From the NCBI GenBank assembly GCA_026985555.1, contig JALSQF010000003.1, positions 62,605 through 126,604 of the forward strand: DNA of 64,000 bases, given 5' to 3'. Source of the DNA: Candidatus Moraniibacteriota bacterium (GTDB lineage: Bacteria > Patescibacteriota > Minisyncoccia > Moranbacterales > UBA9337). Positions 1,233 to 55,938 of the stretch are shown piece by piece (the first letter of the stretch is position 1; each line of letters begins with the position of its first letter). The notes beneath the pieces were generated by a model, which saw only the letters and a program-made list of their open reading frames with translations, did no database searches and was not told the DNA's origin. A program made the position numbers and the translations under genes.

Positions 1233-1928
1233 ATGTCTCATAATTTTTTCTACAATTTAAAAAAGCAGTGGCAATTAGTATTTTTTTCTGCATTGTTATT
1301 AGCTAGTATAAGTTTTGCTTTGAGCACTATTTTACCCATTAAATATGAAAGCACAGTAAGTATTTTGATTATTCAAAAACAATCAGTGGAAAAAGTGGAT
1401 GCTTTTTCAGCGGCTAAATCGGCTGAATACTTAAGTCAGATTTTTTCTAGAATAATTTATACTAATAAATTTTTTCAAGAACTTTTTCAATCACCCTATA
1501 AAATTGTTAATGATTTTCCTCGTGATCCAGAGGAATGGAAAAAAAGTTGGAAAAAAGCAGTGGCAGTTAAAAAAATTAATAACACTGGTATAATTAAGAT
1601 TTCCGTTCTTTCTTCTTCTAGAGATCAGGCGGAAAATTTAGCGCAAGCTATTGCTTGGAATCTTTCTCAAAATGGTCAAAAGTATCACGGAGGAGGAGAT
1701 AGAGTGGAGATTAAACTTATTGATGGTCCTATAACTCCCTTTGATTCCGCTTGGCCAAAGGTATGGCTAAATACTTTACTGGGGTTACTGGTGGGAGTTT
1801 TAATCGCTGGATCTATTATTTACTTTTTTCCAGATAATCAATTATTAAGAAAAAAGAAAAATAGTTTTTCTAGTCCAGAAGAGTATTTAACAGAATGGAG
1901 AGAATTGGAGGGTATTGACAACGAGTAA
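1233..1928 (+). CDS. Wzz-like polysaccharide chain-length determinant, short form
   Basis: N- and C-terminal transmembrane helices flank a periplasmic-type domain; it lies next to glycosyltransferase genes. Confidence 0.45.
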   Translation: MSHNFFYNLKKQWQLVFFSALLLASISFALSTILPIKYESTVSILIIQKQSVEKVDAFSAAKSAEYLSQIFSRIIYTNKFFQELFQSPYKIVNDFPRDPEEWKKSWKKAVAVKKINNTGIIKISVLSSSRDQAENLAQAIAWNLSQNGQKYHGGGDRVEIKLIDGPITPFDSAWPKVWLNTLLGLLVGVLIAGSIIYFFPDNQLLRKKKNSFSSPEEYLTEWRELEGIDNE

Positions 1929-2010
1929 CATTTCATGCTATAATAAAAAGTTAAAAGTTGATTAAAATTGTTAATTATGTTGTAATTCTTTTTTAAAAGG
2001 GTAGAAGTGA

Positions 2011-2072
2011 GAAAGAAAATTAGGAAAAATTTTCTTTCTTCTTCTGTCCTTACCCAGGACAGACAATTTTAA
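2011..2072 (+). terminator. two tandem hairpins followed by a T/A-rich run
   Basis: Inverted repeats gaaagaaaatt/aattttctttc and tctgtcc/ggacaga downstream of the Wzz-like gene. Confidence 0.4.
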
Positions 2073-2205
2073 AAAATCAAAAAGGAGGTAAAAGAATAAG
2101 ACGGGTTGGCGTTTCTCCCTGGAAAACGTCTGGCTAGTTGCCTAGCTAGCTAAAGTTCTTTAAGATTTCCTCTGTGGGCAGGAGGAAAAAATCAAGGAGG
2201 AAAAC

Positions 2206-2820
2206 ATGAAAAAGATTATTTTTCTCTTCTTTTTTTCCTTTTTTTTCTTACCCTTCTTAGCTTCGGCTGAGCAGGTAATTTTAACCGGTCCTCAGTGGGC
2301 CGTGGACAGGGTTTGTTCAGAGGTGCACTCGGTCCTGCCGGGTGCCTCTCTGACCCAAATTGTAAGGGAGGGTAACACCTCCCTACAATTTCGTGATCAA
2401 GATGGTATCACCCGGCGGGTAATTACCATCTCTCAAGTAGCCCTCACTAGCGAGGGCAGGGCCGTCTCCGATGAGGCCCTGACCCTCGTCGCGGTCTGGC
2501 AGGGGATTCCACCTGCCTACGAATACCGGGCTGGGTGCAGCGATGTGCCTTGGTCCAGATATTCGTCCGGGAGCCAAGTTTGGGCTTCGGCTCCCATGGG
2601 GCAGAGGGTCTATGAAATTGTTAAAAAAGACAACGGTATGGCCAAGACCAAGGCCGTTGTTTGTGGGAGGTGGCAATGTAGTGCATACTTTTGCTCGCCT
2701 CACCGGGTGCCACTCAGCTCCGCGTTGGCGAACCTGCCGGCCGGAGCGATTCGGCTGGTAAGACCCAGCGATGGGTCTCACCAGCCCGTAGAGACCGAAG
2801 GTCTCTACGTGGCACCCTAA
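2206..2820 (+). CDS. secreted cysteine-containing protein with a GC-rich body and AT-rich signal peptide
   Basis: AAGGAGG RBS. Hydrophobic signal peptide ends LASA. The body uses GC-ending codons (ctg, gcc, ggc, ccg) that are atypical for this genome. Confidence 0.6.
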   Translation: MKKIIFLFFFSFFFLPFLASAEQVILTGPQWAVDRVCSEVHSVLPGASLTQIVREGNTSLQFRDQDGITRRVITISQVALTSEGRAVSDEALTLVAVWQGIPPAYEYRAGCSDVPWSRYSSGSQVWASAPMGQRVYEIVKKDNGMAKTKAVVCGRWQCSAYFCSPHRVPLSSALANLPAGAIRLVRPSDGSHQPVETEGLYVAP

Positions 2821-2825
2821 ATTTC

Positions 2826-2890
2826 TCAGGGCAGCGTTCGTTTAGTGATTAATATAATTTTAATCCTAAACGGCGCTGTCCGTTTTTTTA
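2826..2890 (+). terminator. rho-independent terminator
   Basis: GC-rich imperfect hairpin (gggcagcgttcgttta ... taaacggcgctgtcc) followed by gttttttt. Confidence 0.5.
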
Positions 2891-2970
2891 TCTTGAAAAA
2901 ATATTTTTAAAACTTGATTTTTCAATAGCTTAGTTTAAAATGAATTTAAATAAGTCTTTAATGTTTTTCA

Positions 2971-5013
2971 ATGAAAATTAAAACCAAATTTTCTAGTTCA
3001 AGTATCAGACAAGAATTTTTAGAATTTATGAATAAACGAGGGCATAAGATTGTGCCGTCGGCTTCTTTATTGCCGGAAAATGATCCCACGACACTTTTTA
3101 CCGGATCAGGAATGCAACCAATGGTGCGGTATTTATTAGGAGAAAAATATCCCGGAGGCGTAAAGCGAATAGCCAATGTTCAAAAATGTTTTCGTAGTGG
3201 AGATATTGAAGAAGTGGGAGATAATCGGCATACTACTTTTTTTGAAATGCTAGGCAATTGGTCTTTGGGTGATTATTTTAAACAAGAACAAATTGAGTGG
3301 ATTTTTGAATTTTTAACTAAAAAGTTAGAGCTAGATCCTCAGCGGCTTTATGTTTCCGTTTATCGTGGGAATGAAAAATTAGGTTTGCCAAAAGAAGAGG
3401 AGGCGGTGAAAATTTGGCAAAAACAATTTCAAAAAGTAGAAATTGAAGCGAAAAGCGTTGATTTAATAGATTTAAAACAAAAGGGCGTAGATTTAAAAGG
3501 AAAATGTTTAGTGGATTTAGATAATAGAAATAGAATTTTTTATTATTCCGATTCGGAAAATTGGTGGTCACGAGCGGGAGCGCCACATAAAATGCCGCTG
3601 GGCGAGCCAGGCGGTCCTGACTCAGAAATATTTTGGGATTTTGGTCCAGAACATAAATTTCATGAAAATTCTCCTTGGAAAGATCAACCCTGTCATCCAG
3701 CTTGTGAGTGTGGGCGTTTTATGGAAATTGGTAATAGCGTTTTTATGCAATACAAGAAAACTGAAAATGGATTTGAAGAATTGAAACAAAAAAATATTGA
3801 TTTTGGGGGTGGTTTAGAAAGAATGACAGCAGCTGTTTTAGATAATCCTGATATTTTTTTAACAGATTTGTTTCAACTACCAATGAAAAAGTTAGATGCC
3901 ATTTTATGGTCGCAGAAAAATGCTGAACAAACGCAGAAAAATACAGAAAAAGTGACTGATTATAAAGAATCTTTTTATGTAGGTGATGATGAAAATATCA
4001 AACAATCTTTTAGAGTTATTTTAGATCACATTAAGGGAGCGACTTTTTTAATTAATGATGGATCTTTACCTTCTAATAAAGATCAGGGATATTTTACACG
4101 GAGACTTATTCGGCGAGCGGTAAGATTTGGACATCAATTAGGAATAAAAGAAAACTTTACTAGTCAGATTGCCGAAGAGGTGATTAAAACTTATGAGGAT
4201 TATTACAAAGATCTAGGAGAAAATAGAGATAAAATTTTAGGAGCACTGGAAGAAGAAGAAAAAAAGTTTAGGAAGACTTTAGTTAAAGGTTTAAAGAAAA
4301 TGGAGGCGATATTTGATACAACACCACGAGTTGTTAAAAATAAAGGTGAGGCGATTAGAATTGTAACGGGATATCATGCTTTTGACTTATACCAAACCTA
4401 TGGTTTTCCAATAGAAATGTTTATTGAAGAGTTGGATAAAACAGGAATTGAATATGATATAAAAGAAATTAAAAAATCTTTTCAAGAAGAGTTGCAAAAG
4501 CACAAAGATTTATCACGAACGGCTAGCGCTGGAAAATTTAAGGGAGGTTTAGCAGATAATGATGAAGCAACAACTCAATTACATACTATTACACATTTAA
4601 TGTTAGCTGGTTTGCGTAAAGTATTAGGAGAAGAAGTTAGCCAAAAAGGTTCTAATATTACTCCTGAGAGAATTCGTTTTGATTTTTCTTATAGTCAAGC
4701 GATGACAGAGGAGCAAAGAAAAGCCGTAGAAGATTTTGTCAATAATGCTCTAAAAACTGGTGGAAAAGTAGAAATAGCTGAAATGCCTAAACAACAAGCC
4801 ATAGATGAAGGAGTAACAGGCGCTTTTTGGGAAAAATATCCAGAGCAAGTTAAGGTTTATACCATTACTTCTCCTCAAGGTGAAATTTATTCTCGGGAGC
4901 TTTGTGGTGGTCCACATGTTAAAAATCTTTCAGAAATAAAAGGTACGTTTAAAATTCTCAAAGAAAAATCTAGCGGAGCAGGAATAAGAAGAATTAAAGC
5001 TGTATTAAAATAA
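2971..5013 (+). CDS. alaS: alanyl-tRNA synthetase, short form lacking the C-terminal domain
   Basis: Class II aaRS catalytic core (FTGSGMQ..., FFEMLGNWS) and editing-domain HxxxH (HTITHLM). It is 680 aa against about 870 for the typical enzyme. Confidence 0.8.
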   Translation: MKIKTKFSSSSIRQEFLEFMNKRGHKIVPSASLLPENDPTTLFTGSGMQPMVRYLLGEKYPGGVKRIANVQKCFRSGDIEEVGDNRHTTFFEMLGNWSLGDYFKQEQIEWIFEFLTKKLELDPQRLYVSVYRGNEKLGLPKEEEAVKIWQKQFQKVEIEAKSVDLIDLKQKGVDLKGKCLVDLDNRNRIFYYSDSENWWSRAGAPHKMPLGEPGGPDSEIFWDFGPEHKFHENSPWKDQPCHPACECGRFMEIGNSVFMQYKKTENGFEELKQKNIDFGGGLERMTAAVLDNPDIFLTDLFQLPMKKLDAILWSQKNAEQTQKNTEKVTDYKESFYVGDDENIKQSFRVILDHIKGATFLINDGSLPSNKDQGYFTRRLIRRAVRFGHQLGIKENFTSQIAEEVIKTYEDYYKDLGENRDKILGALEEEEKKFRKTLVKGLKKMEAIFDTTPRVVKNKGEAIRIVTGYHAFDLYQTYGFPIEMFIEELDKTGIEYDIKEIKKSFQEELQKHKDLSRTASAGKFKGGLADNDEATTQLHTITHLMLAGLRKVLGEEVSQKGSNITPERIRFDFSYSQAMTEEQRKAVEDFVNNALKTGGKVEIAEMPKQQAIDEGVTGAFWEKYPEQVKVYTITSPQGEIYSRELCGGPHVKNLSEIKGTFKILKEKSSGAGIRRIKAVLK

Positions 5014-5058: not shown

Positions 5059-6552
5059 ATGAAAACAAAAATTATCATAGGTCTAGGAATTATTGTTTTA
5101 ATCTTATCTGGAATATTTACTTTTAGTATTAGTAAATATTATCAAAACAATATTCAAAACAAACAAGAAGAAATCAAAATTAATAAAAATAATAACAAAA
5201 AAGATGGCAAGCAAGAAACAAATTCTCAATCAGAAGAAATGAAGCAGCAATTAAAAGACGAACAAGCAACGAATAGGGAAAAAGAAATTAATGCAGATAA
5301 AAAAACAGAAATCAAATCTGCTTTGGATAGATTTTTACTTAGTATTTATAATCCTCCCTATGCTTGGCGTTATGGACCTTATCGTGATAAAGATTTTGAT
5401 TATTATCAAAAAGCAGGTTTTGATAATTTTTTATGGGCCAGAGATGAAGCTAAATTAATGGAAAAAATACATAAATATCATTTTAAATATTTTTTGAATG
5501 TTAGAGCGCTATTTCCAGAAGAGGGGCCAGGAAATATTGATTACTTAAGGGGAGTTAAAAATCCTGATGAAGATAATGAAACTTATAATGTTAGACCAGC
5601 AGTGGTGCCAGAGGTTTTATTAAAAAAACTTGATATTTTAGTAGATAAGTATAAAGATGATCCAGATTTAATTGGTTACTGGATTTGTGATGAACCTTTT
5701 CCTTCCGCTTACAAAAATATAGCTAAAGTAATAGAGAGAATTAGACAAAAAGATCCCAAACACTATAGTTTAGTTAATATTGGTGATAATGAATATACTA
5801 CAGAAAAAAATATTGATAAGTTTTTAGAAATAACTAAAGCGAAGGTGCTTTGTTTTGATCGTTATAATTTTTTCAATGGTTTTGATAGAAATAGACAATT
5901 TTTACAACTGCTAGGGATGATTCGTCAAAAAGCTTTAGAATATAACATACCTTTTTATGGTTTTGTGCAGGCCGTTGGTACTAATGGAACTAGCGCTAGT
6001 GAATTAGATTGGCGAACGCCAAATCTCAATGAAATGCGTTGGCTAGCTTATCATATGTTAACTTATGGAGCTAAAGGATTACTTTGGTTTCATTGGGATG
6101 CCGAGGATTGGGGCGTGATACAAAATCCGGCTAGAAATAAGATTTATATAAATTTACAAAAAGTGAATAAAGAAATTAAATCTTTAGGAGATATGATGGC
6201 AAATTTAAAAACAGTAGATGTTTATCAAGTAAAAGGAGAAAAGATTATTGGACAAAGGAAGGAAGGCGATAAGAAATTTATTTATCCAGTAGATAATAAG
6301 ACTAGTTTAACAGTGGGAATGTTCAGTAGAAATGATGGAAAAGAATATTTTATGTTAACAAATACAAGTTATCGCACTTCGGTTAATTCGGAAATAAAAA
6401 TTCTTAAAGCAATTAATGGTTTAGAGGCATTTAACATTGAAACTAAAAAGTGGGAAACAATAAATATAAATGCCAATTCTGATAATACAACTTTCATGCT
6501 AGAATTAGAAAAAGGAAGTGGAAAGTTATTTAGAGAGAAAATGGAATTTTAA
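5059..6552 (+). CDS. membrane-anchored hypothetical protein, possibly a TIM-barrel glycoside hydrolase
   Basis: N-terminal transmembrane helix, Lys/Asn-rich linker, GYWICDEP-type motif. The family is not assigned. Confidence 0.3.
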   Translation: MKTKIIIGLGIIVLILSGIFTFSISKYYQNNIQNKQEEIKINKNNNKKDGKQETNSQSEEMKQQLKDEQATNREKEINADKKTEIKSALDRFLLSIYNPPYAWRYGPYRDKDFDYYQKAGFDNFLWARDEAKLMEKIHKYHFKYFLNVRALFPEEGPGNIDYLRGVKNPDEDNETYNVRPAVVPEVLLKKLDILVDKYKDDPDLIGYWICDEPFPSAYKNIAKVIERIRQKDPKHYSLVNIGDNEYTTEKNIDKFLEITKAKVLCFDRYNFFNGFDRNRQFLQLLGMIRQKALEYNIPFYGFVQAVGTNGTSASELDWRTPNLNEMRWLAYHMLTYGAKGLLWFHWDAEDWGVIQNPARNKIYINLQKVNKEIKSLGDMMANLKTVDVYQVKGEKIIGQRKEGDKKFIYPVDNKTSLTVGMFSRNDGKEYFMLTNTSYRTSVNSEIKILKAINGLEAFNIETKKWETININANSDNTTFMLELEKGSGKLFREKMEF

Positions 6553-6833: not shown

Positions 6834-9800
6834 ATGGAACAAATAAAATTTTTTAAAAAACCAAAAAATTTAGAAGCGGGGGAAGAACTATTTAAATTAT
6901 TTGAGAATAAGGATAGTATTTTTTTGGATGCTTTAAATAAAGTAATTCAAGGAAAAGATTGGGTTGATGAGCAAAAAAATAGAGTTAATAATTTCTCTGG
7001 ATCTTTACAGGATTATTTAAAATTAACTGAAATAAATGGAGTTAGTAGGGTGGGCGCTTTAAAAATTTTAAAAGGCCTACTAAAAGAAATAAGAAAATCA
7101 AAAAAAGAAGCTATTTCAGATGTAGAAAAAAAGAAACAAATTTATTTGCCTCTATCATATATTGAAAAGATAAATCTTTCTGAAATAGATTTACAAGAAG
7201 GTGATTTGTGGAAAGCATACCAAGAATTTTGGAATAGTTTACCAGACGAAGAAAAGAAATTTTACAAATTTAAAGATGAAATAGTTATTAGCAGGCAATC
7301 ACCAGATGCAAAAAAGCAAGCAGTTGTGGAAGCGGTATCTAATGCTTTAGATGCTATGAGAAATGTTCAAATTGGCGAAAAGGGTTTGGGGATTAAGCAG
7401 CTTTTGTCATATGTAGATGATGGCGGAGAAATTATTATAAAGAGTAAGAAAGATGGTGATAGAGCAAGGTTATTAAATATTAAAAAGGGGGCAGATAATG
7501 ATTATTATTCCAGTATAAAAAATATTGATAACTTTCCCAGTACTTCTGGTACAATAGTTTCTGTAAAATTAAAAAAAGAATTAACCCCGGAAAGAATTAA
7601 AGAAATAGAAAAACAAATTAAATACACTTTCAGATTAACTTTAGGAGCGCAATTAATTTTAAATGGTGAAGTTATCAATAATTATCAAAAAATCAAAAAC
7701 TTAAAAGGTAAAACAGCCAGTGAATATGAATCTACTAAAATAGTTCGTGTAGATATTAAAAATGATAAAATTCAAATTATAGATGGTGGGGTTGGTATGG
7801 ATGCTAAGACATTAAGCACAATGTTTGTTCCGCGTGCTGGCACTAAAAAGATGGCAATTAAAAAGGATAAATCGTTTCCAGAAGTTTGGTTATTGGAGGA
7901 TGAAGTTAATCAGGGAAAGGTATTTTTTTCTCGAGGTAATGAAATTTTAGAAGATGCAGACTTAAAAAATAGTAAATATTTAAATTACTCTCAAAATGGT
8001 CTTCTTTTAGAAGGACCAAATTTTAGAGTTCCAGAATCAAGGCAAGGTATTTTTCTTGATGAAACATTTTTAAATACAATTAACAAGATTGTTACAGAAA
8101 TTTTAAACTCCAACAAACTAGCTCAAGAAAAAGCACAGCTTTTAAATTCTATTTTGATATATTTAGATGAACAAATGCAAAAGAAAAATCTTGGTGATAA
8201 GCAAAAAAACAAAGAGCAAAATAGCGAAATTTTAACTCATATTAAGAAAATAAAAAAGCAGGCCCAACCATTAATTCAGGAATTACAACAAGAATATATA
8301 TTACTACCAAATCATCAAAAATGGCAAAATTTAGATTTAGATAACAGTAAGAGTAATAAAGAATTATTCTATTTAAATGAGAGATTGTTTGATTTTAAAA
8401 TAGAAAGTATTCCAGGCGTGGAACGCGCAGAGTATTTTAGAGGCGCAAAAGTTTATGGTGTAGATTTCAAAGAATTGGATCTAAAAGATAATAAATTTAT
8501 TGAATATAGAGGTAGCTATTTGTTTGATAAAAGGGTATTACAAATTTATGAGCAAGAAACAGATGATTTTAAAAAAGAATCATTAGAAGAATTGATTGAA
8601 TTATCTCTTAATCCGATTATTACTTCTTATGATGAGAAAGAAATTCATATATTAAGAAAAATATTGATCAAAAAACAATCTGTCAAAAAAAATAATAAAG
8701 AAAAACAAAGAGAGCAAGTAGAAACAATACAAAACTCAGTTTTAAGTGATTTATTCCTCAAAGAATACAAGGAATTAAACAAAAAAATGGGCACTTGTCA
8801 TGAAGTCACCTACTTAGAAAACGGTTTATTTGGTTTAAGATTTGAGAAAGGTTTTGTGCTGTTAGACAAAAATAGCCAAGAAAAAATGTCTATAGATAAC
8901 ATGGGTGCTTGTTATGAAGTTACCCAATTAGAAAACGGTTTAATTGGTTTAGGATTTGAACATGGTTTTGTGCTGTTAGACCAAAATAGCCAAGAAAAAA
9001 TGCGAATAGATGATATGGGTAATTGTTTTTGGCTAACTTCACTAGAAAACGGTTTAATTGGTTTAGGATTTGAACATGGTTTTGTGCTGTTAGACCAAAA
9101 TAGCCAAGAAAAAATGCGAATAGATGATATGGGTAATTGTTTTTGGCTAACTTCACTAGAAAACGGTTTAATTGGTTTAAGATTTGAGGATGGTTTTCAG
9201 ACTTTAGATTACTATCATTTTTCACAAAAAATAATAGGACAAGTTAACGAGAACGAATTAGTTGTTCAAATCAAAAATATAATAAATTCCTTAGATGATA
9301 GTTTAATTGACAAGACTGATATTGAAGAAATTTTAATAAGCAGGGTAAGAAACAAATTAAAAGAAATAGAAAAAAACGAACAAGATTTTGAAGGAATAAA
9401 TAATCTTCTTTCTAAACCAGAGCAGTTGTCTCAAGTATTTAGTTATTTACAAAAAAAGGAGCAACAATTTCAAGAATATCAAATTTCAACATATCTAAGA
9501 AATACTATTTTAAGTTTAATGACAGATCCAAAAACAACAGAACAGTTATTTTCTAAATTAGAAGATAACAGTCTTCAAGTAGAAATGGTTTTGAGTATTC
9601 AGAAATTTAAATTATTAGAAAATAATATAGAAGAATTTTCAAACTTATTAAAAGACATTGACAATCTCTATGAAAGAAATTTCTTTTACTCAATTGTAGA
9701 TAAATATTTAAATAATATAGATAAATCTAAACAAGATATTGGATTGCTTTTAGATAAGTTATCTCGTATAAAACAGGCAAGTATCTTTACTACCTTTAAA

Positions 9801-11855
9801 AGCGCTTTGCAAGGCGAGTATAATGGAAAATCAATTTTATCATATCTTGGCAAAGAGAAAGATCCTCAAATGCCAGCAGGTGTATTTTTAAAATTTTTAG
9901 AAAGTGATATAAATTTAGAGATAAAAGAAGCTGAAAGTATTATTCCTCAAAAAGCGGAAAATATTTTTGAAGAAAGTGGCATTGATCCAGTGGAATTATA
10001 CATTATTGCAGGACAAGGAAATGTTTCCGATGAAGACGTAATTAAAGTATTAAAAGAAAGACGAAAAAATAAGAAAGAAATTAGTTTAAATACAAGAGAA
10101 CTTATTGAAGAACAAATTAAAAAAGAAATTAGAGGACAATCCTCAGAAGAAGGAATTTATGTGAGGGAGATTTTTCAAAATGTTGGGGATGCAGTTTTAA
10201 AACAAAATCCAAATGTTTCTGAAAGAAATCAATTTAATATTTCTATTTGGCAAGAACAAGATACGAAAACAAACCAGTTATTTTTTGTAGAAAAATATGA
10301 AGATCATGGAATTGGTATTTCTTCTTTGGCTACTCTTTTAGTGGCTAAAATAAATAATAAAAAAGATGGAGATGCTGGATATTTCGGCAGTGGTTTTTTG
10401 TCTACTATGGAAGATGGGGATATTTTAGAAATAAAAACATCAACAGGAAATGGAGAAACAAAATATATTCAAATTAAAATTAAAAAAGGAGATGATCAAA
10501 AAGGAGTTGGATTTGATATTACTCAATATAAAAAAATAAATGAATCTTATCAAGGGACAACTATTATTAGAAAAACAGAGATGAATAAAAGCAAAATTAC
10601 GGAACTTGAGTTTGGGTTACTGGAAGCAAATATATTAAAAAACACTGCACTCTGGCAGGTTGATTTAGGCGACGGACAGCATATTGAGACATATCTTAAT
10701 GGCACGAAGATAGAAAAGCAAAGTATTACAAAGCAAGCGGAAACTTTTGAGCTTGATGGACAAGAGTATATGGTTAAACTGGAGCAAGGAAAATTTTCTC
10801 AAGTAGCACACGGAGATGGATTACGAATGAGTAATCTTGAACAGCGGTATTTGGAATTGGTTCCTAAACAAATTCAAGATATTTTTAAGGATTTAAATTT
10901 ATCAATAGTTTTAGATAAAAAGCTTCCTTTAATTAAAGATAGAAGTAGATTAGCTCAAGAGCAAAAATTTTTAAAGAAAATCCAGAAGAGTATTGCTAGA
11001 GCATCTGTTAAAATAGTGGCAAAAGAATTGTTAACTTCTCGGCGTAAGTTTGTTGGGTGGTCGGATGATTATTTCAATAATCCAAATTATCACTTATCCT
11101 ATGATAATCAAGATGGTGAAAGGATTGTAAGGTTAGCTAAACAACTTAATTCAGGAGCTGAATTATCAGATAGTGACTGGCAATGGCTTTCTGATGAAAA
11201 TGATTCAACATCAAAATTAGCTCGTTTAGTTGTTTTAGTAGAAGTGGATTATCAAAAAGAAAAAGTAACCTTGCATAATGAAAGAATAAAGATGTTGCAA
11301 AGAATTCAAGAAGAGATACAAGATAGTAAATTGTTCGCTATTTTACAAAAAGAAAAGGCAAGTTTAGAAAATACTTACACTTCACTATCAAGTAGTAATG
11401 CAAATGTTTATAGTAATATTTTTCCTTCATTTAAGAAGAGCATGATTGTTGCTATGGCAAACTTAGAACAGAGTGAGAATAAGGTTGATGATAATAATTT
11501 AAATCAATCGGAGAAAAAAAGATTAAATTCTTTAAAAGAAATCATTGCTTTACTTTATGGAAATAGGTTAAAAATTGAAGTAATAGAAAATAGCAAAAAA
11601 GCTGGTTATTTTCAAAGAAATCCACTGGGTAAAGATATTTTTGCAATTAATAGAATTATTTTAAATTCTTCCACAAAAAATCTAATAAAAACAGTTGTCC
11701 ATGAGTTAGCTCATTATGAAGAAGGAACCGAAAATCATGGATATAATTTTTCACATCAGGTAAAGGGTGTATTTGGGGATAAATATCGCGAAGTTTGTAA
11801 TTCTTTGTTAGGTTTAATTATTCAAAAGACTCCAATTTTGAAGCAAACTTTATGA
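6834..11855 (+). CDS. giant multidomain protein with two GHKL/Bergerat ATPase-like modules, an internal tandem repeat array and a C-terminal HExxH motif
   Basis: Module 1 has EAVSNALDAM (Hsp90-like N box) and IIDGGVGMDAKTLSTMFVPRAGTKK (G1 box). Module 2 has REIFQNVGDAV, EDHGIGISS and GYFGSGF. The C-terminus has VVHELAHYEEGTENH. Confidence 0.6.
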   Translation: MEQIKFFKKPKNLEAGEELFKLFENKDSIFLDALNKVIQGKDWVDEQKNRVNNFSGSLQDYLKLTEINGVSRVGALKILKGLLKEIRKSKKEAISDVEKKKQIYLPLSYIEKINLSEIDLQEGDLWKAYQEFWNSLPDEEKKFYKFKDEIVISRQSPDAKKQAVVEAVSNALDAMRNVQIGEKGLGIKQLLSYVDDGGEIIIKSKKDGDRARLLNIKKGADNDYYSSIKNIDNFPSTSGTIVSVKLKKELTPERIKEIEKQIKYTFRLTLGAQLILNGEVINNYQKIKNLKGKTASEYESTKIVRVDIKNDKIQIIDGGVGMDAKTLSTMFVPRAGTKKMAIKKDKSFPEVWLLEDEVNQGKVFFSRGNEILEDADLKNSKYLNYSQNGLLLEGPNFRVPESRQGIFLDETFLNTINKIVTEILNSNKLAQEKAQLLNSILIYLDEQMQKKNLGDKQKNKEQNSEILTHIKKIKKQAQPLIQELQQEYILLPNHQKWQNLDLDNSKSNKELFYLNERLFDFKIESIPGVERAEYFRGAKVYGVDFKELDLKDNKFIEYRGSYLFDKRVLQIYEQETDDFKKESLEELIELSLNPIITSYDEKEIHILRKILIKKQSVKKNNKEKQREQVETIQNSVLSDLFLKEYKELNKKMGTCHEVTYLENGLFGLRFEKGFVLLDKNSQEKMSIDNMGACYEVTQLENGLIGLGFEHGFVLLDQNSQEKMRIDDMGNCFWLTSLENGLIGLGFEHGFVLLDQNSQEKMRIDDMGNCFWLTSLENGLIGLRFEDGFQTLDYYHFSQKIIGQVNENELVVQIKNIINSLDDSLIDKTDIEEILISRVRNKLKEIEKNEQDFEGINNLLSKPEQLSQVFSYLQKKEQQFQEYQISTYLRNTILSLMTDPKTTEQLFSKLEDNSLQVEMVLSIQKFKLLENNIEEFSNLLKDIDNLYERNFFYSIVDKYLNNIDKSKQDIGLLLDKLSRIKQASIFTTFKSALQGEYNGKSILSYLGKEKDPQMPAGVFLKFLESDINLEIKEAESIIPQKAENIFEESGIDPVELYIIAGQGNVSDEDVIKVLKERRKNKKEISLNTRELIEEQIKKEIRGQSSEEGIYVREIFQNVGDAVLKQNPNVSERNQFNISIWQEQDTKTNQLFFVEKYEDHGIGISSLATLLVAKINNKKDGDAGYFGSGFLSTMEDGDILEIKTSTGNGETKYIQIKIKKGDDQKGVGFDITQYKKINESYQGTTIIRKTEMNKSKITELEFGLLEANILKNTALWQVDLGDGQHIETYLNGTKIEKQSITKQAETFELDGQEYMVKLEQGKFSQVAHGDGLRMSNLEQRYLELVPKQIQDIFKDLNLSIVLDKKLPLIKDRSRLAQEQKFLKKIQKSIARASVKIVAKELLTSRRKFVGWSDDYFNNPNYHLSYDNQDGERIVRLAKQLNSGAELSDSDWQWLSDENDSTSKLARLVVLVEVDYQKEKVTLHNERIKMLQRIQEEIQDSKLFAILQKEKASLENTYTSLSSSNANVYSNIFPSFKKSMIVAMANLEQSENKVDDNNLNQSEKKRLNSLKEIIALLYGNRLKIEVIENSKKAGYFQRNPLGKDIFAINRIILNSSTKNLIKTVVHELAHYEEGTENHGYNFSHQVKGVFGDKYREVCNSLLGLIIQKTPILKQTL
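8787..9230 (+). repeat. tandem 114-bp (38-aa) coding repeats, about 3.8 copies
   Basis: Units start at 8787, 8901, 9015 and 9129. Units 3 and 4 are identical over about 90 nt. Each encodes MGxC..LENGLIGLGFEHGFVLLDQNSQEKM. Confidence 0.9.
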
Positions 11856-14149: not shown

Positions 14150-14285
14150 AATTGGTTTATTATTAACTAAAGATGATAAAAATATTTTAGCATAAAATAA
14201 ATAAAAATACTATGCATTTGAATCATTAAATTAACCGTAAAATAGAGCATTCAAAATGATTTAAAGGATAGAGATTTTAAAAAAT

Positions 14286-14335
14286 CTTCTGGCTATTTAA
14301 ATATCCATTTAAATGGATATTTAAATAGCCAGAAG
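14286..14335. repeat. 48-bp palindrome copy 2 (50 bp with its extended arms)
   Basis: Identical core to copy 1, in the divergent intergenic region. Confidence 0.95.
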
Positions 14336-14359
14336 GCAAAGAAAACTTGATTTTTTAAA

Positions 14360-14641
14360 TTGATTTATTTAAGTTTAAATAAACTATTAAAGGAGGAATA
14401 TGCAATGAAAAAAATAGTTTCCTTGACAGAGAGAATAAAAAAAGAGAACGAAATGGATGAAGATTTAACTGTTCTTTTAAAAAGAGCGCAAAGATTAAAA
14501 AAGAAACAGCTAGTGGAATATTATGGAGATATCATTTTAATTAAGGATGATCTGGAAAAATTTTTAACGAAAGAAATTAATGGTTATTTAATTAACGAAA
14601 GACTAATTAAGCATAGTTTTTTTGCGCAGGTATTTATTTAG
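14360..14641 (+). CDS. hypothetical small protein
   Basis: ORF with an AGGAGG RBS; no recognisable motif. Confidence 0.35.
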   Translation: MIYLSLNKLLKEEYAMKKIVSLTERIKKENEMDEDLTVLLKRAQRLKKKQLVEYYGDIILIKDDLEKFLTKEINGYLINERLIKHSFFAQVFI

Positions 14642-16668: not shown

Positions 16669-16801
16669 TTTAAATCACGTTATACATAGAAGGACTTTAA
16701 AAATAAAAGAAAAAGAAAAGGAGGTGAAGAAGTGAAGTTTTAAAATTTAAAAAAATTTTTTTATTTTGAAATTTGAAAAAAACAAAAAAAGGAGGATTAT
16801 T

Positions 16802-17758
16802 ATGAAAAGATCGTTTATTTTATTTTCGTTTATTTTGATGTTGCCGGCTATAGTTTTAGCTGGTCAGGCCAATTCCTCTTCTTCTGCTACTGCCAATGTG
16901 GGAGTGATGGCGGGAGGAGGATCGGCCAGTAGTTTCGCCGAAGGAGGAACGGCGGTAACAAACACCAATGTTTCTCCTAACATTTCGCCTAATATTAATG
17001 TGGACGTGGGAGTTAATCCCAATATCTCTCCGTCCATAAATCCTAGTCAGACTGTTTCGCCACAGACAAGATCTTCTGTGGCCATAGATAGTCATGACAA
17101 AATTGAGAACATTAACCGGCAACTGCCGGGGTCTCCTTTACTGGGAGGACCTAATGCCATGGAATATTTTGGTCCATGGCAGTTGCCGAAAACCCCCTGG
17201 AACGTATTTAGTCCTTATTTGGGCAGGTATGAAGTGCAAAATCCTGCCATTAGGATTGAATACGAAAAACTCTGGAAACATTTTTATCGGAATTACGAGA
17301 ATGTTTCCAGTGTAACCCAAGTCCCCTGGGGATCTGTATCTACTCAGGGGATGGTATTGGTGGGAGAAATGGCAGTCGTTCTTCATAAGGAACAGACCAG
17401 TGAAGATGGACTGCAAATTGCCCGTTATTTAGCTTCTGAGAATGGAGCTGACCTAGTGGAGTTTACACTGGGTTGGAATCAGCAGTCGGAAGCAGGAGGC
17501 TGGCACGTGGGCACCGGAGCTGGTGCCACCGGTGTTGTTGGTCCCCAGGAAAAAGTCGGAGTGTCTGGTGCCGGAGGGACCGGCGTAGGACATTCCTGGG
17601 TAAAAATAGAAACCTGTCCTTTCGTGAAAGCCAGATTCTGGCGCACTAAAGGGCAGGAGATAAAGATAAAAAAGATTACGTTAGAGACTAATAAGTCTCT
17701 TAGGCGTAATCATGTTCAAGAAAAATTTAAGACAATAAGAAAGGAGGGTAAGCAATGA
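16802..17758 (+). CDS. secreted Gly/Ser/Asn/Pro-rich protein with a GC-rich body
   Basis: AAGGAGG RBS. Signal peptide MKRSFILFSFILMLPAIVLAGQA. NISPNI repeats and Gly-rich tracts. GC is much higher than the flanks. Confidence 0.6.
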   Translation: MKRSFILFSFILMLPAIVLAGQANSSSSATANVGVMAGGGSASSFAEGGTAVTNTNVSPNISPNINVDVGVNPNISPSINPSQTVSPQTRSSVAIDSHDKIENINRQLPGSPLLGGPNAMEYFGPWQLPKTPWNVFSPYLGRYEVQNPAIRIEYEKLWKHFYRNYENVSSVTQVPWGSVSTQGMVLVGEMAVVLHKEQTSEDGLQIARYLASENGADLVEFTLGWNQQSEAGGWHVGTGAGATGVVGPQEKVGVSGAGGTGVGHSWVKIETCPFVKARFWRTKGQEIKIKKITLETNKSLRRNHVQEKFKTIRKEGKQ

Positions 17759-17883
17759 AAAAAATAAAAATTTTTATTTTGTGTTTAACGGCAACTCTTT
17801 TTCTCTCAGCCTGTGCTGGGGGAAAATACATTAATATTCAGCCCACTGCCCCTGTGGCAGGAACTGAAATTCCAGTGAAATAA
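17755..17883 (+). CDS. 42-aa lipoprotein
   Basis: AAGGAGGG RBS. ATGA start/stop overlap with the upstream gene. Lipobox LSAC. Confidence 0.5.
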   Translation: MKKIKIFILCLTATLFLSACAGGKYINIQPTAPVAGTEIPVK

Positions 17884-17889
17884 AAAAAT

Positions 17890-17998
17890 AAAGAGGAAAG
17901 AAAATCCATTTAGGATTTACTTTCCTCTTTTTTATTTCACTAAAAAATAAAAATAAAAAAGGAGGCCTATGTAAATACATAGTGCCTCCTGACCTGCT
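17890..17998. terminator. two hairpins between convergent genes (bidirectional terminator region)
   Basis: agaggaaag...ctttcctct followed by T-run; ggaggcctatgta...tacatagtgcctcc. Confidence 0.5.
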
Positions 17999-18000
17999 AA

Positions 18001-18546
18001 TTAATATGACACATTGACGCTAACCCCGCTGTTAAAATAAGAGTTAGCATTTCCGATGCTTTCAGCCCCGCCACCCGTTTGGGTGGTTATACTTACTCCG
18101 GGGGCAAAAACACCGGTGTAATTGTAGCCCTCTGTAAACCCAGCGGCGCGATGCTGGGTTTCTACGTATCCATTGGAACCGGCGTCCAGATAAATATTGA
18201 CGCCGTTGGTTCCAACGGTCCCTTTGAAACCATAAAAATTACTCTCTTCCGCAAAAACTGCGGAGCGAGAGTTACCCGTTCTGGCTCCGACTGTGGAGCC
18301 ATTCTGGTTTACCTCAACTCCTACTGGGAGATAATTTTCTCCCAGGATTACGCCTTGCTCGGCGTAATTATTTTGGGAAATAGAATTGATTACCGTAGGC
18401 ATGGGTCCGCCTACGGCCTCAATTCCGTTGTATGAGGAGGCACCGTTAAAAACGGTGACCCCCGTGGGCTGGGCCGCCAGGGCAAAACTGGCAAAACAGA
18501 AAATAGAAATTGAAAAAATTAAAGATAGAAAAAATTCCTTTTTCAT
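18001..18546 (-). CDS. secreted Gly/Asn/Tyr/Ser/Thr-rich protein with a GC-rich body
   Basis: AGGAGG RBS. Signal peptide ends ALAAQP. Composition is atypical for the genome. Confidence 0.6.
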   Translation of the reverse strand: MKKEFFLSLIFSISIFCFASFALAAQPTGVTVFNGASSYNGIEAVGGPMPTVINSISQNNYAEQGVILGENYLPVGVEVNQNGSTVGARTGNSRSAVFAEESNFYGFKGTVGTNGVNIYLDAGSNGYVETQHRAAGFTEGYNYTGVFAPGVSITTQTGGGAESIGNANSYFNSGVSVNVSY

Positions 18547-18784
18547 AGTATCCTCCTTTTCTTTTTTTGATTAACCTTAGCAAAAACAAATTGTTGTTTT
18601 TTTAAACCTCCTTTCTTGTTATTTTTTGCCTCGGTTAATCGTAATCGTTGTTAAATAACCTTTCAAAAGAATGTTAAGGAAAAAACTAATTTTTGTCAAG
18701 AGTTTAATCTTTTGAATAAATATTTTAGAAAAAGCATAATTTATTCTATAATTAAGATAGGTTATTAGAAATAAATTATTTTCT

Positions 18785-19741
18785 ATGTTGAAAAAAATAA
18801 TTTTTTTTATACTCATTCTAGGCGGTCTTTTTTTCTCGGATAATTTTTTTACTTTTCAAAAAAAAATAATTCCAATTGATAATTTTAAATCTCCTCTTTT
18901 TTTAACTAAAAAGCAAAAGTGTTTTCTTCCGTTGCATTATTCTTTAGGAAAATTAGATAATCGTTTTAATCTTACTTCAGAAGAAGCTCGGCAAGCTCTA
19001 TTGCAAGCGGAAAGTATTTGGGAGAAAGCAATTCGTATGAATTTACTGCAATATGATGAAAAAGCTAATTTTAAAATTAATTTTATTTTTGATCAGAGAC
19101 AAGAGCGAACTTTGGCTTATAAAAAACTATATGAACAATTAGATCAAGTTCAAAAAACCAAAGGAAAGATGAGTAAAGAATATCAAGAATTAATTAAGCG
19201 TTATCAGATTAAATTAGATGTTTATCAAAAGAGAGTTAAAAATTTTAATACTGATTTAAGCCAATACAATCAGAAAGTAGCTTATTGGAACAAAGAGGGT
19301 GGAGCGCCATCAGATGAATATAAAAAATTGCAAAAAGAAAAAAAAGAATTAGATAAACGAAGAAATAAAATAGAAACCAAAAGAAAGGAACTGAATAAAC
19401 TAATACAAAAAATAAATTTATTAGCCCAAAAAGAAAAGAAACTAGTGGAAAATTATAATAGCAATGTGAGAAAATACGAAAATAATTATGGTCAAAAATG
19501 TCACTTTGATCAAGGAAAATATTTTGGCGATCATATAGAAATTTATCAGTTTAATAATTATTCAGATTTGATTTTGGTTTTAGCGCACGAATTAGGACAT
19601 GCTTTGCAAATGAAACATGTAATAAATAGCCATTCTATAATGTATTATTTAGCAGGAGATCAAGATTTTAAAAACTTACAACCAACTAAAGAAGATATTG
19701 AAGAATTAAAAAAAGTGCTGAAAGAAAATCATTGTCTTTAA
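18785..19741 (+). CDS. membrane-anchored metzincin-like zinc metalloprotease with a coiled-coil region
   Basis: HELGHALQMKH (HExxHxxxxxH) followed by the SIMYY Met-turn. N-terminal transmembrane helix. Confidence 0.55.
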   Translation: MLKKIIFFILILGGLFFSDNFFTFQKKIIPIDNFKSPLFLTKKQKCFLPLHYSLGKLDNRFNLTSEEARQALLQAESIWEKAIRMNLLQYDEKANFKINFIFDQRQERTLAYKKLYEQLDQVQKTKGKMSKEYQELIKRYQIKLDVYQKRVKNFNTDLSQYNQKVAYWNKEGGAPSDEYKKLQKEKKELDKRRNKIETKRKELNKLIQKINLLAQKEKKLVENYNSNVRKYENNYGQKCHFDQGKYFGDHIEIYQFNNYSDLILVLAHELGHALQMKHVINSHSIMYYLAGDQDFKNLQPTKEDIEELKKVLKENHCL

Positions 19742-49547: not shown

Positions 49548-49986
49548 GATGAGGCTTGCAAAAATAATTATTTTTTTAATTTAACTAATTGAAAAAACAA
49601 TCTATATCAAAAAATAATAAGCAAAAATATAAACGGTATTTCAATCTAATTTCATTTAAATCTATTTAATAGAAATAAAAAATGAAATAGAAATTAGTTG
49701 AATTCCGTTATGGCGGAGTTTTTTATTTGAAAATTAATTAAAAAGTTTGTGAAGAAATTGATATTTTAGATTATTAAAATATAAACTGAACTTAAAATCT
49801 AAAGTATTAATTTCCGCATAAATGAGTAAATTAAAAACAAAATAGAAAAGATGGTTTTATAGAAAGGAAATTATTTTTAAGCGGAAAAATAGTTTCTGAA
49901 ATAAAACCAAAATAAAGTAGGTAAGTAATTTTATTGAGTCAAAAATTAGTTAAGTTATTTTTAACTACTAATTTTGAAAGTAAAAA

Positions 49987-53056
<3,070 letters not shown>

Positions 53057-53181
53057 TTACTTTCATTTCATTGTAGCAATTACGCTAGCGTTTGTTACAA
53101 TGATTAGTAGTTAAAAGTAACTTAATGTAGTTATTTTAAATAATTTTGCAGATACCAACTGAAACTAGATGATATTATTTT

Positions 53182-53413: not shown

Positions 53414-53500
53414 GGAGAGGTGCCTGAGTGGTTGAAAGGGGCACCCTGCTAAGGTGTTGTACCTTCACAGGTACCGAGGGTTCGAATCCCTCCCTCTCCG
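53414..53500 (+). tRNA. tRNA-Ser (anticodon GCT), class II with long variable arm
   Basis: Acceptor GGAGAGG/CCTCTCC, anticodon loop CTGCTAA, long variable arm, T-loop TTCGAAT. Confidence 0.9.
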
Positions 53501-53593
53501 CAAATTTGCAATTTTTGCATTTTTGGCTGAATTTGGAGCGGAGCAAAGCTCCTCTGAGGCCGCGCTTTGCGCGAAAAGGGCTGAATTTACAAG

Positions 53594-55233
53594 GATTTGC
53601 CACGCTCCGCGTGGTCAAAAAGAAATGTTTTGGTTTTGAATTTGGAAGTTCGAACCAATCTTTTTTAGAAAATCTCGAATCCCTTCGGGATTTTCTTTGG
53701 AAGCGATAATTTTGGCTTGTTTACTGTCTTTTATAAATTTCTCGGCGAGTTCGAACCGATTATCGCTTTTTTGCTCAAAAGACTTCAATTTGTCTTTCAA
53801 AACTTGTTTTTGATTGATGAGTTTGTTTTTCGCTTTCTGATATTCTTTGATGTTCAAAACACTTTCCAGATAAGCGTTCATCAGCTTTTTCAGTTTCTCG
53901 TCAATTTTTGCGATTTCTTGTTTTATCTTTTGAGCAAAAAAGTTTGATGATTGCGCCTTTACTTTTCTTTCTTTTTCAATCTCTTTCAACATCCAATCGG
54001 CGCAATCATCAGACAAAGAAACTTTTTGTATTGCTTCGTTGATTTGAGATGAAATTTTTTCTTCTCTCGTAAATACATTTTGCGTGCATTTATGGTTTGG
54101 GTTTTTCCTTGTGCAATAGTAGTAAATATATTCCTTACCGCTTTTCTTGATTTTCTTGTCCGCCGTGATTGAATATCCGCACTCTCCGCACTTGAAAATT
54201 CCCCGATAAAGAAAAAATTTCATCTTGTCCGCTTTTTACGGTTTGGACTTTCTTTTCATCACTTCTTGCACTTGGTCAAAAAGTTTCTTTGTGATAATCG
54301 GTTCGTGCTTTCCTTCGTAAAATTCGCCATTGTAGCGGATTAGTCCGTAATAGAAAGGATTTTGCAATAAATACTGATAATTGGAAACGGAAAGCATTTT
54401 TCCTCGCCGCCCGCGCAAGCCAAGCTCGTTGATAATCTTTCGGAGTTCTCTCAATGTGTATTTGCCTGTCGCGTAGGCCTCAAATGCCTTTTTTATGAGA
54501 GGGGCTTTTTCTTTATCCAAATAAATCATTTTTGTTTTCTTGTCGTTCAAATATCCCAAAGGGGCCATTTGAGGCCATAAACCTTGCTTTAACTTTTGGC
54601 GGTGTCCTCTTTTGATATTCTCCGAAAGATTATCAACATAATATTTTGACTGCCCAAAAGCGATGGAAAGCATAAATTTTCCTTGAGGAGTTGGGTCAAA
54701 CCAGAAAGTCGGGAATTTTAGCTCTTTGATAACGCCAATATCAACAAGATAAATAATTTGCCCGCCGTCAACGCTGTTTCTTGCCAGTCTGTCGGGGTGC
54801 CACGCTAAAATTCCCGTTGCTTCGCCCGCTTCCATTCGCTTTAACATATCGGCAAACATCGGTCGCCCGGGCTTTTTGGCGGTTTGTTTTTCTACGATAA
54901 TATCAACAATTTCCAAATTTTCTTTTTTCGCCAACTCTTTCAATTCCGCTATTTGGTCGGCAATGTTTCGCACTTGCCGATCTTCCGAATCGGTAGACTT
55001 GCGGGCGTAAATGAAAAACTTTCTGGTTTGATTTTTTGCTTTATTGTCTTTATTGTCTTTGCTCATATTTTTGGCAGTCAAAATATTAAAAAATTATTGC
55101 TTCCAAGTTTCGTCAAAGGCGAAACGAAAAAAGATTGGTTGGCAAAACTTCGTTTGCTTTGGGTTTTACCCAAACGAACTTCCAACTCCAACACCAAAAC
55201 ATTTCTTTTTGCCCGCGCGGAGCGTGGCAAATC
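53594..55233. mobile_element. serine-recombinase element bounded by imperfect inverted repeats (IR-L 53594-53666; IR-R 55127-55233)
   Basis: The reverse complement of 55127-55233 aligns with 53594-53666 at about 85% identity, apart from a 34-bp hairpin insertion at 55141-55174. The shared core is gatttgccacgctccgcg. Confidence 0.6.
53615..55081 (-). pseudogene. large serine recombinase interrupted by one in-frame TAA (fragments 54236-55081 and 53615-54223)
   Basis: The N-terminal fragment has the YARKST catalytic serine motif and resolvase domain. The C-terminal fragment has the zinc ribbon CGECG...YYYC and a coiled coil. Both fragments are in the same frame, separated by TAA plus four codons. 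Confidence 0.7.
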
Positions 55234-55691
55234 GCCCTAAAATGGGGTTTTGGCGCGCGTAGCGCGCCTGCCGAGCGGCTTTGCCGCGAGGCAATATCTT
55301 CCCAAAATGACAAAATCGTAAATTGGCGGTACTGTTTGGACGAAATTCTAACCTTTTTTGAGCAAAATCCAGAGGATTTTGAGGATTGAATCCCGCCCAG
55401 CGTTTCCGCCCGCCTCCGCTTCGCTGCGGCGACAGGCAAAACAGAAAATTTTTCTTTTCCTTAATTGAAAAAAATTTGGGCGTGTGAGTAAAAAATGTTT
55501 AGAAAAATTGTGCGAGAAAAAAATAAAAAAGTAGAGAATAAAAGAGAAATTAAAAACAAATAAAAAATTGTACTGAATTTTAATTTTCTACTAAAAATAT
55601 AAATTATAAATAGTAATAGATATGTATATAATAATTTAAAATATATGAGAATAATTTTTTTTAGAAGTAAAAATGTATCCTAAAATAGGTA

Positions 55692-55720
55692 TTGACAAAG
55701 CAGAAAAAATATATTAAAAT
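55692..55720 (+). promoter_or_regulatory. consensus sigma70 promoter TTGACA-N17-TAAAAT
   Basis: Read directly. Confidence 0.5.
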
Positions 55721-55773
55721 AAGAAGTTAAGTTAATTTAAAAAAGAAAAAATAAAGAAAAAAGGAGGGAAAAA

Positions 55774-55938
55774 ATGATTAAAAAAATAAAAATGAATTTT
55801 AATTTTTTATTTTTAAAAAAAGGAGATCTTATCCAGCTCTCCGTTGTGAGAGAGTTGGATAAGAGAGAAGACCAGCTCATGGAGTGTTTGTGTGAGCTGG
55901 TCTTGAATCACAGAGATAAAATTTCTGTGGTTAAATAA
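55774..55938 (+). CDS. 54-aa small protein (MIKKIKMNFNFLFLKKGDLIQLSVVRELDKREDQLMECLCELVLNHRDKISVVK)
   Basis: AAGGAGGG RBS 6 nt upstream and a consensus promoter. Followed by the hairpin accggagaaag...ctttctccggt plus T-run at 55945-55985. Absent from the ORF track because it is under 60 aa. Confidence 0.45.
   Translation: MIKKIKMNFNFLFLKKGDLIQLSVVRELDKREDQLMECLCELVLNHRDKISVVK

Follow-up and report, generated by a model that had tools for sequence, protein, structure and literature searches.

A GC-rich secreted-protein gene of a Moraniibacteriota bacterium with a messenger predicted to be base-paired along almost its whole length

The STAB-SD of cry3A in Bacillus thuringiensis, a Shine-Dalgarno (SD) sequence reported at about -125 in cry3A and cry3Ca, stabilises the messenger RNA (mRNA) that carries it (Agaisse & Lereclus 1996, as summarised in PMC12970973), and ribosome standby sites offer an accessible place to dock upstream of a structured, poorly accessible ribosome-binding site (RBS) (PMC3936740, PMC5924895). 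The gene considered here, at 2206-2820 (+) of a 64,000-nt stretch of contig JALSQF010000003.1 from a Moraniibacteriota bacterium (assembly GCA_026985555.1; the whole stretch is called the window), recalls both. Region 2075-2890 holds the hairpin leader, the signal-peptide open reading frame (ORF) and the terminator of this one gene, an island of high GC in a window with a background of about 29% GC. Its mRNA is selected to be base-paired along almost its whole length, and the GC-richness is probably a by-product of that selection.

As in the cry3 leaders so summarised, a perfect SD-like sequence with no start codon after it lies in a long 5' untranslated region (5' UTR), here at -125 to -117; the equivalent sequences of two sister genes, at -85 and -68, are nearer than the about -125 reported for cry3A. 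A distant promoter before the gene and a strong terminator after it are further likenesses, and encoding a protein made in bulk would be another if the product of 2206-2820 is abundant. The differences are that three conserved hairpins and an invariant AGTTCTTT follow the orphan SD here and the real RBS is predicted to be sequestered; that the entire coding sequence is dense in hairpins, which is not a feature of cry mRNAs; and that the host is a member of the Patescibacteria, not a Firmicute, with both stabilisation and 5' processing putative. With standby sites the gene would share an accessible upstream docking site before a structured RBS, but a classical standby site is a stretch without structure and not, as here, a perfect copy of an SD lying 55-115 nt upstream, and a ribosome would have to slide across three stable hairpins.

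The coding sequences of single-stranded RNA phages of the MS2/Qbeta type are selected for extensive pairing and still code, and their structure protects against nucleases; engineered, highly structured mRNAs have an extended functional half-life. The present case differs from these in that the genes are chromosomal, belong to a cellular organism and number only 3 among about 55 in the window, and from the phages in that the individual hairpins turn over fast, with no conserved regulatory architecture. Stable mRNAs of S-layer and outer-membrane proteins (the 5' UTR stem-loops of ompA and slpA belong here) encode abundant surface proteins and have long structured leaders and strong terminators, often near genes for glycan biosynthesis. 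Their stabilising elements, however, are confined to the UTRs, and the proteins here are small (about 180-320 aa), with no recognisable S-layer domains. Full-text searches of the literature turned up no account of bacterial genes on a chromosome in which selection for such pairing extends over the entire coding sequence, and none in Patescibacteria. The locus would represent an extreme form of mRNA protection by structure, combined with a decoy SD, and not a new principle.

A coding sequence folded beyond its composition and codon usage

The coding part of the gene and its two sisters in the window are as follows.

2206-2820 (+): ORF of 204 codons, encoding a 204-aa protein with a Sec-type signal peptide
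2206-2268 (+): signal-peptide codons (Lys/Phe/Leu/Ile codons), encoding MKKIIFLFFFSFFFLPFLASA
2269-2820 (+): mature coding region and stop; 58% GC, 73% of bases paired, about 15 local hairpins with stems of 3-20 bp
16802-17758 (+): second hyper-structured signal-peptide gene, with a Ser/Gly/Asn/Pro-rich N-terminal part and a conserved C-terminal domain
18001-18546 (-): third hyper-structured signal-peptide gene, Gly/Asn/Ser/Thr-rich, 181 aa

In a 300-nt profile, GC runs at 0.27-0.35 before the gene, 0.56-0.58 over 2250-2850 and 0.29 after it; the gene itself has 0.55-0.58, against the genomic background of about 0.29. By codon position the mature part has 0.60/0.52/0.62, and its third-position GC (GC3) of 0.62 compares with 0.17-0.23 in ten ordinary genes of the window. 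The first 22 codons have 0.23/0.23/0.45; the signal peptide is AT-rich because it is built of Lys, Phe, Leu and Ile codons. The first-pass annotation, made from the sequence of the window, had thus described the composition well when it spoke of GC-rich codon usage behind an AT-rich signal peptide, in the first of three such genes. It had also raised the prospect of a chimeric assembly, which is rejected: 1900-2950 is base-for-base identical, junctions included, in three independent assemblies (one NCBI metagenome-assembled genome, or MAG, and two separate SRA runs).

Composition does not account for the folding. Region 2075-2890 has a minimum free energy (MFE) of -382 kcal/mol, against -278 ± 8 in dinucleotide shuffles (z = -12.8), and the three signal-peptide genes have fold z-scores of -9.3 to -12.5 (-12.5 for 16802-17758, -9.3 for 18001-18546). 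Segments of the same organism's 23S rRNA score -3.3 and -5.9, and ordinary genes of the window +1.6 to -3.1, so that by z the structured genes fold beyond the organism's own 23S rRNA. The sharpest control permutes synonymous codons among positions of the same amino acid, which leaves protein, codon usage and GC3 unchanged. The z-scores are then -10.1 (2206-2820), -9.3 (16802-17758) and -8.6 (18001-18546), as compared with -3.1 and +2.0 in two control genes, and every synonymous permutation is less stable than the native codon order, by 60-100 kcal/mol. It is therefore the placement of codons that builds the hairpins. Selection on mRNA structure, which the first-pass annotation had offered as an alternative to its own preference, is strongly supported by these results.

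The trait is confined to few places. A sliding scan of the whole window finds continuous runs of z <= -4 only at 2161-3000 and 16801-18480, all other signals at that level being isolated terminator, rRNA or intergenic hairpins, and in the loci of relatives continuous strong-fold runs are likewise restricted to the structured genes. The transcript is a chain of about 20 independent local hairpins, some of them with perfect GC-rich stems of 9-16 bp. The idea that the hairpins are copies of one element, like a miniature inverted-repeat transposable element (MITE) or a repetitive extragenic palindrome (REP), was rejected, as the only direct repeat is a duplicate of the RBS. Thermophily as the force behind the GC-rich stems was set aside on the reasoning that GC in the 23S rRNA reaches no more than about 47%.

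The surplus of GC is found mainly in RNA stems. Paired positions have 0.58-0.64 GC across the three genes (0.64 in 2206-2820, 0.58-0.63 in its two sisters), and unpaired positions 0.43 in 2206-2820 and 0.28-0.32, the genomic background, in the sisters; GC3 is 0.49-0.67 where paired and 0.29-0.48 where unpaired. When the protein is recoded with the codon usage of the host, GC falls to 0.43 and the folding energy is halved (MFE from about -290 to about -152 kcal/mol). Since recoding leaves 43% GC, synonymous sites account for about half of the excess, and the choice of amino acids for about the other half.

Substitutions relative to an orthologue with 60% protein identity fall 68/47/113 by codon position, and an AlphaFold model of the protein, built from only seven sequences, reaches a pLDDT of 85 and a pTM of 0.81; 2206-2820 is therefore truly coding. 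In the same comparison, 120 residues are identical, and 57 of them have different codons. A GC island in an AT-rich genome is usually an RNA gene, and one might take the transcript for a structured non-coding RNA, in which the ORF exists only because GC-rich sequence has few stop codons. GC is indeed nearly flat across codon positions, and long antisense ORFs are present (e.g., 2383-2781 (-), 132 aa). But divergence dominated by third positions, synonymous switches in such number and a confident model from so few sequences make this reading hardly tenable, the more so as SD, ATG and signal peptide are conserved in homologues (with equivalent N-termini in 6 of 7 family members) and the ORF spans exactly the distance from RBS to terminator.

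The protein begins with MKKIIFLFFFSFFFLPFLASA, followed by the predicted cleavage site and EQ. By inspection, this is a basic n-region (MKK), a hydrophobic h-region (IIFLFFFSFFFLPFL) and an A-x-A motif (ASA), in keeping with the earlier description of the protein as secreted, and the signal peptide is homologous across the family. The same description had called the protein Cys-rich. Five cysteines are present in the mature part and are kept in the 60% orthologue, but they are not conserved across the family, and no CxxC motif occurs in the protein, which makes the proposed disulfide-bonded effector a weak suggestion. A fold search with the AlphaFold model found weak similarity to the thioredoxin class (a thioredoxin-like alpha/beta fold). 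The CxxC/CxxS active site that thioredoxin-fold oxidoreductases have at the N-terminus of helix 1 is not present there: helix 1 starts GPQWAVD, and the only cysteine near it, C37, is single and not conserved in the family.

Pfam searches with all three proteins of the structured genes gave no family, a sub-threshold Prok-RING_2 match alone, and a sequence profile search of the PDB gave no match. Only seven matches were returned from 1.84 billion representative proteins, and only 2 clusters among 5.8 billion proteins. One of these relatives, P0014 (5546 aa), carries seven copies of a segment matching residues ~64-128 of the 2206-2820 protein; the N-terminal alpha/beta module therefore also serves as a repeat in a giant, probably surface, protein.

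Orphan Shine-Dalgarno sequence, leader and terminator

The elements around the coding sequence, and their counterparts at the sister genes, are these.

1915-1944 (+): match to a sigma-70-type promoter, TTGACA-18 nt-TATAAT (12/12, with TG before the -10), from a consensus scan only
2003-2060 (+): two hairpins near the 5' end, one with a long A/G-U/C stem (2003-2045), the other with a short GC stem (2046-2060) followed by ACAATTTT
2081-2089 (+): orphan SD AAAGGAGGT, -125 to -117 from the ATG at 2206
2108-2188 (+): structured leader with hairpins P1 (2108-2130), P2 (2131-2152) and P3 (2166-2188)
2194-2200 (+): real SD, AAGGAGG, 5 nt before the ATG at 2206
2829-2888 (+): intrinsic terminator, a 22-pair composite stem (2829-2881) followed by TTTTTTT
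16717-16725 (+): orphan AAAGGAGGT of the second gene, -85 to -77 from the ATG at 16802
18606-18614 (-): orphan AAAGGAGGT of the third gene, -68 to -60 from its ATG

The 64 kb contain just three copies of AAAGGAGGT, one in the leader of each structured gene and each on the correct strand. This sequence extends the organism's RBS consensus, AAGGAGG, and its complementarity to 16S rRNA is judged from the RBSs, there being no 16S gene in the window. No start codon or ORF follows it at the proper spacing in the first and third genes, and in the second only a GTG mini-ORF of 3 codons does. The context of the first orphan SD, AAAAAATCAAAAAGGA (2071-2086), is an 88% copy of the context of the real RBS, AAAAAATCAAGGAGGA (2186-2201), 115 nt downstream, which suggests that the decoy arose by duplication of the RBS.

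The hairpins and the GC-rich terminator that the first-pass annotation had discerned are both present. Hairpins occupy conserved positions in the leaders of six relatives, with 11 of 25 pairs retained through changes on both sides, and between P2 and P3 lies an invariant single-stranded AGTTCTTT (2154-2161). The promoter match overlaps the end of an upstream Wzz-like gene, and transcription is predicted to start near 1951. The two hairpins at 2003-2060, found at the same place in relatives, could be either part of a long 5' UTR or the terminator of the upstream gene.

Partition-function calculations predict that the real SD is paired, with U-rich codons of the signal peptide (P(unpaired) 0.008, and no higher than 0.008 across the structured transcripts). 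For the orphan SD they predict an accessibility 5-50 times higher: P(unpaired) is 0.10-0.46 in six of seven transcripts given a short 5' end, and 0.09, 0.27 and 0.03 for the three genes with the full predicted 5' UTR, the value depending on the 5' end assumed. As modelled, the orphan SD fits a role in docking, as a standby site or as a decoy.

Such predictions also fit a different purpose, namely translational control: hairpins might slow elongation for the sake of Sec targeting or domain folding, and a sequestered RBS fed from a standby site might set a low, steady rate of initiation. All three genes encode signal-peptide proteins, the contrast between the paired real SD and the more open orphan SD is what this account would predict, and loading through standby sites on structured 5' UTRs is established (PMC3936740, PMC5924895). 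However, two other exported proteins of the window lack the syndrome (an M10 peptidase at 18785-19741, z +2.0, and a membrane-anchored protein at 5059-6552, z +0.2), and the hairpins extend over the entire coding sequence and the 3' end, not only over a site where a pause after the signal peptide would be useful. We consider translational control unlikely as the reason for the structure, but it is compatible with a role in stability and the two may coexist.

Relatives and the evolution of the structure

The gene sits within a Wzx/Wzy-type surface-glycan locus, directly downstream of a Wzz-like gene, its neighbours being a GT2 gene, that Wzz-like gene and alaS. Orthologues lie downstream of GT2 and Wzz-like genes in AT-rich relatives (L001, L010/L062 and L013). 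The syntenic orthologues, from Moraniibacteriota, have 60% and 37% protein identity; they too are GC islands, 0.52-0.53 in flanks of 0.32-0.40, and are strongly structured (z -5.5 to -8.2). The small homologues from the profile search for which DNA was retrieved all lie in AT-rich contigs (32-40% GC) with a similar gene neighbourhood, and one of these contigs belongs to a named Moraniibacteriota MAG.

Other searches added little. A profile search of genome contigs with the protein alignment found no related locus, and one of metagenome contigs for the first gene found nothing, the seven-sequence alignment being highly divergent. A permissive pattern for the leader DNA gave about 120 matches on genome contigs, among which only that in L062 (Moraniibacteriota) is real. 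With the alignment of the second gene, metagenome contigs yielded one new distant locus, L140, which has raised GC.

These relatives bear upon the reading that the first-pass annotation had favoured, in which a high-GC donor recently supplied the mature domain, which came to be joined to a native signal peptide. In its favour, the gene departs strikingly from the host in composition and GC3, and the protein has no Pfam family and few homologues. But the syntenic orthologues in AT-rich relatives show the same GC-rich coding, which leaves transfer unsupported, and nucleotide identity with the 60% orthologue is about 62%, at which a foreign GC signature is implausible because composition would have decayed unless maintained. 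Nor is fusion to a local signal peptide in keeping with a signal peptide that is homologous across the family. The search for homologues in high-GC taxa that the annotation had proposed traced none among the 1.84 billion representatives (seven matches, of which the 5546-aa P0014 was left untraced), and neither mobility genes nor tRNA or att repeats flank the gene, the sole repeat being the RBS duplicate. Finally, the composition of a donor cannot explain GC that is largely confined to stems and a fold z of about -10. Transfer is very improbable.

At short distance, the stems show how the structure is kept. Between the window and L009 (96.6% nucleotide identity), six pairs have changed on both sides with pairing kept, where 1.07 double hits of any kind are expected (Poisson P = 8e-4). 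Of the single transitions in stems, 16 kept pairing through a G-U pair on the sense strand and 5 broke it (binomial P about 0.013). At greater distances, pairs at the same positions become few.

First gene, 60% identity: 23 of about 225 pairs shared (0-4 in a shifted control), 4 with two-sided changes
Second gene's family, 49-57% identity: 18-44 pairs shared (shifted-control mean 0.6-1.7), 2-10 with two-sided changes
Second gene's family, ~32% identity: 0-5 pairs shared (shifted-control mean 1.3-2.3), 0-1 with two-sided changes

Even at about 32% identity, z in the second gene's family is still about -8. Hairpins turn over while foldedness persists, and so selection keeps a density of hairpins, not one architecture. 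This matters for the possibility that the transcript has a second life as a structured RNA, for example as a scaffold, a sponge or an exported RNA. The fold z exceeds that of rRNA, AGTTCTTT and the leader hairpins are conserved, and a few hairpins of the coding sequence are conserved with compensatory changes. Yet a specific tertiary architecture is argued against by the turnover of most hairpins, none of which is shared at about 32% identity, and Rfam offers nothing beyond noise even at E <= 10 (in Rfam 15, no family at gathering score over 1900-3000, the best permissive match having E 0.13). The property occurs in genes for three unrelated proteins, which suggests a physical trait of a generic kind. 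A dual-function RNA seems quite unlikely.

The changes in stems bear also on causes at the level of DNA, such as GC-biased gene conversion at surface-protein genes, which are often recombination hot spots, or template-switch (quasi-palindrome) mutation. Raised GC3 without extreme structure in the most distant relatives and the good folding of both strands speak for a cause of this sort. It would leave unexplained why z is still about -10 when synonymous codons are permuted at fixed GC3, why GC is localised in stems, why single transitions favour G-U pairing on the sense strand (16 against 5), why compensatory doubles are enriched, and why the trait goes together with a specific leader that carries an orphan SD. 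We hold it to be highly unlikely.

The second and third genes form a conserved module with an ORF of 42-44 aa, and the trio recurs in distant relatives (L006, L007 and L140), convergent in some and co-directional in others.

17755-17883 (+): 42-aa lipoprotein ORF with lipobox LSAC, overlapping the stop of the second gene through ATGA

The second family keeps 0.46-0.49 GC and z-scores of -7.8 to -13.4 down to about 34% protein identity; the AlphaFold model of the second protein has a pLDDT of 34.

Some features of the relatives and of the window deserve record in their own right. In L014, the homologue of the first gene is not hyper-structured (z -0.6), and a stretch just upstream, 2041-2400, with ORFs of 229 and 146 aa, is (GC 0.43-0.52, z -5 to -9); the trait may move between genes. 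Directly downstream of the first gene's orthologue lies a toxin-antitoxin pair of MNT (a Polbeta nucleotidyltransferase) and HepT (a HEPN RNase) in L001 (6717-7600) and L010 (3719-4602), and an MNT gene only in L015 (1098-1577), in the place held by alaS in the window. An RNase toxin beside a putatively nuclease-proof mRNA may be a coincidence. Isolated strong folds in AT-rich intergenic DNA of the window, unrelated to the GC islands, are found at 1-240 (z -9.8), 14161-14520 (z -8.3) and 55681-56040 (z -13.0); they may be long AT-rich hairpins, terminators or small RNAs.

Elsewhere in the window, an ORF of 1673 aa (6834-11855) has no Pfam match and contains about four tandem repeats of ~38 aa (MG.C.EVT.LENGL.GL.FE.GF.LLD.NSQEKM.ID). 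The window carries a bacterial 23S-5S-tRNA cluster, in which the 23S gene (49981-53061) has small insertions and exceeds the Rfam model by about 150 nt; since no 16S gene lies upstream of it within the window, the rRNA genes are apparently unlinked. Two ORFs (54236-55081, Resolvase and Recombinase domains; 53615-54223, Zn-ribbon recombinase domain) together make up a split large serine recombinase, which is flanked by a 155-nt inverted repeat (53498-53652 and 55175-55329, 74% complementary). This region, 53414-55329, abuts tRNA-Ser (53414-53501), has 0.40-0.54 GC against the background of 0.29, and could be an integrated, invertible or decayed element.

What the structure may be for

Taken together, the gene is probably a native one for a secreted protein, with an mRNA selected for long life and resistance to nucleases. 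Synonymous sites, and partly amino acids, are shifted towards GC where they are paired because stable stems need G-C pairs in a genome of about 29% GC. Hairpins would hide the AU-rich single-stranded stretches on which endonucleases of the RNase Y/E type act, and the terminator stem would block 3' exonucleases. The accessible orphan SD at -125 to -117 might dock a 30S subunit, which might in turn block 5'-to-3' decay, as the STAB-SD of cry3A does, or serve as a standby site for the sequestered real RBS, or both. An mRNA of this kind would live long and be translated steadily, and its product would be an envelope or secreted protein made in abundance. We infer longevity from the design of the transcript, as we do the binding of 30S and the abundance of the product.

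Several observations weigh against this reading, of which reasoning from design is itself one. Dense structure could be an obstacle to translation, and this fits poorly with high expression. The orphan SD becomes less accessible once the full predicted 5' UTR is included. UUCG and GNRA, the extra-stable tetraloops, show no enrichment relative to synonymous permutations. Folding is good on the antisense strand as well (z -8.7 to -11.6), the stems being mostly Watson-Crick, so that the case for selection acting on the RNA strand is suggestive, not decisive; the sense strand has the lower MFE in 14 of 14 genes examined, which is partly compositional. Few hairpins keep their position between relatives (at 60% identity about 10% are shared, at about 32% none), and no specific architecture can be tied to a function. 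Lastly, in the most distant relatives, L014 and L140, GC and GC3 are raised but the structure is not extreme, and L140 at least lacks an orphan SD upstream. Some of the GC excess must therefore have another cause, for example amino-acid composition, expression-linked codon bias or biased gene conversion, and it follows also that armour and leader are traits of one clade.

Compositional outliers are routinely read as the result of horizontal transfer, and automated calls of islands or transfer in AT-rich genomes would misfile a gene such as this one, whereas a GC island that codes for protein can be the footprint of selection on mRNA structure, much as the GC islands of rRNA and tRNA genes reflect the structure of their RNAs. 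If the reading of a long-lived messenger is true, the three genes are a natural extreme case of coding sequence and RNA structure evolving together under a dual constraint. The combination of decoy SD, hairpin leader, structured coding sequence and strong terminator would be of practical interest for the making of long-lived bacterial mRNAs.

A preprint on related Paceibacteria (10.1101/2023.08.25.554742) reports that, among genes with a signal peptide, those expressed at the highest levels encode small proteins whose function is unknown, which is offered here as context only. In the present window, three unannotated small secreted proteins and a partner lipoprotein are marked out as probably important, abundant components of the envelope of epibionts. 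To our knowledge, almost nothing is known of mRNA decay and post-transcriptional control in Patescibacteria, which are rarely cultivated, and the structured genes would provide a handle on both. Perhaps, and we put this forward only tentatively, they belong to an undescribed class of armoured messengers in Patescibacteria of the Moraniibacteriota type: genes for secreted or envelope proteins with coding sequences paired almost throughout, beyond the level of rRNA, behind a decoy-SD leader, their hairpins rebuilt by compensatory and synonymous change and their amino-acid composition shifted to suit. Such mRNAs might persist through the long non-growing phases of an epibiotic life.

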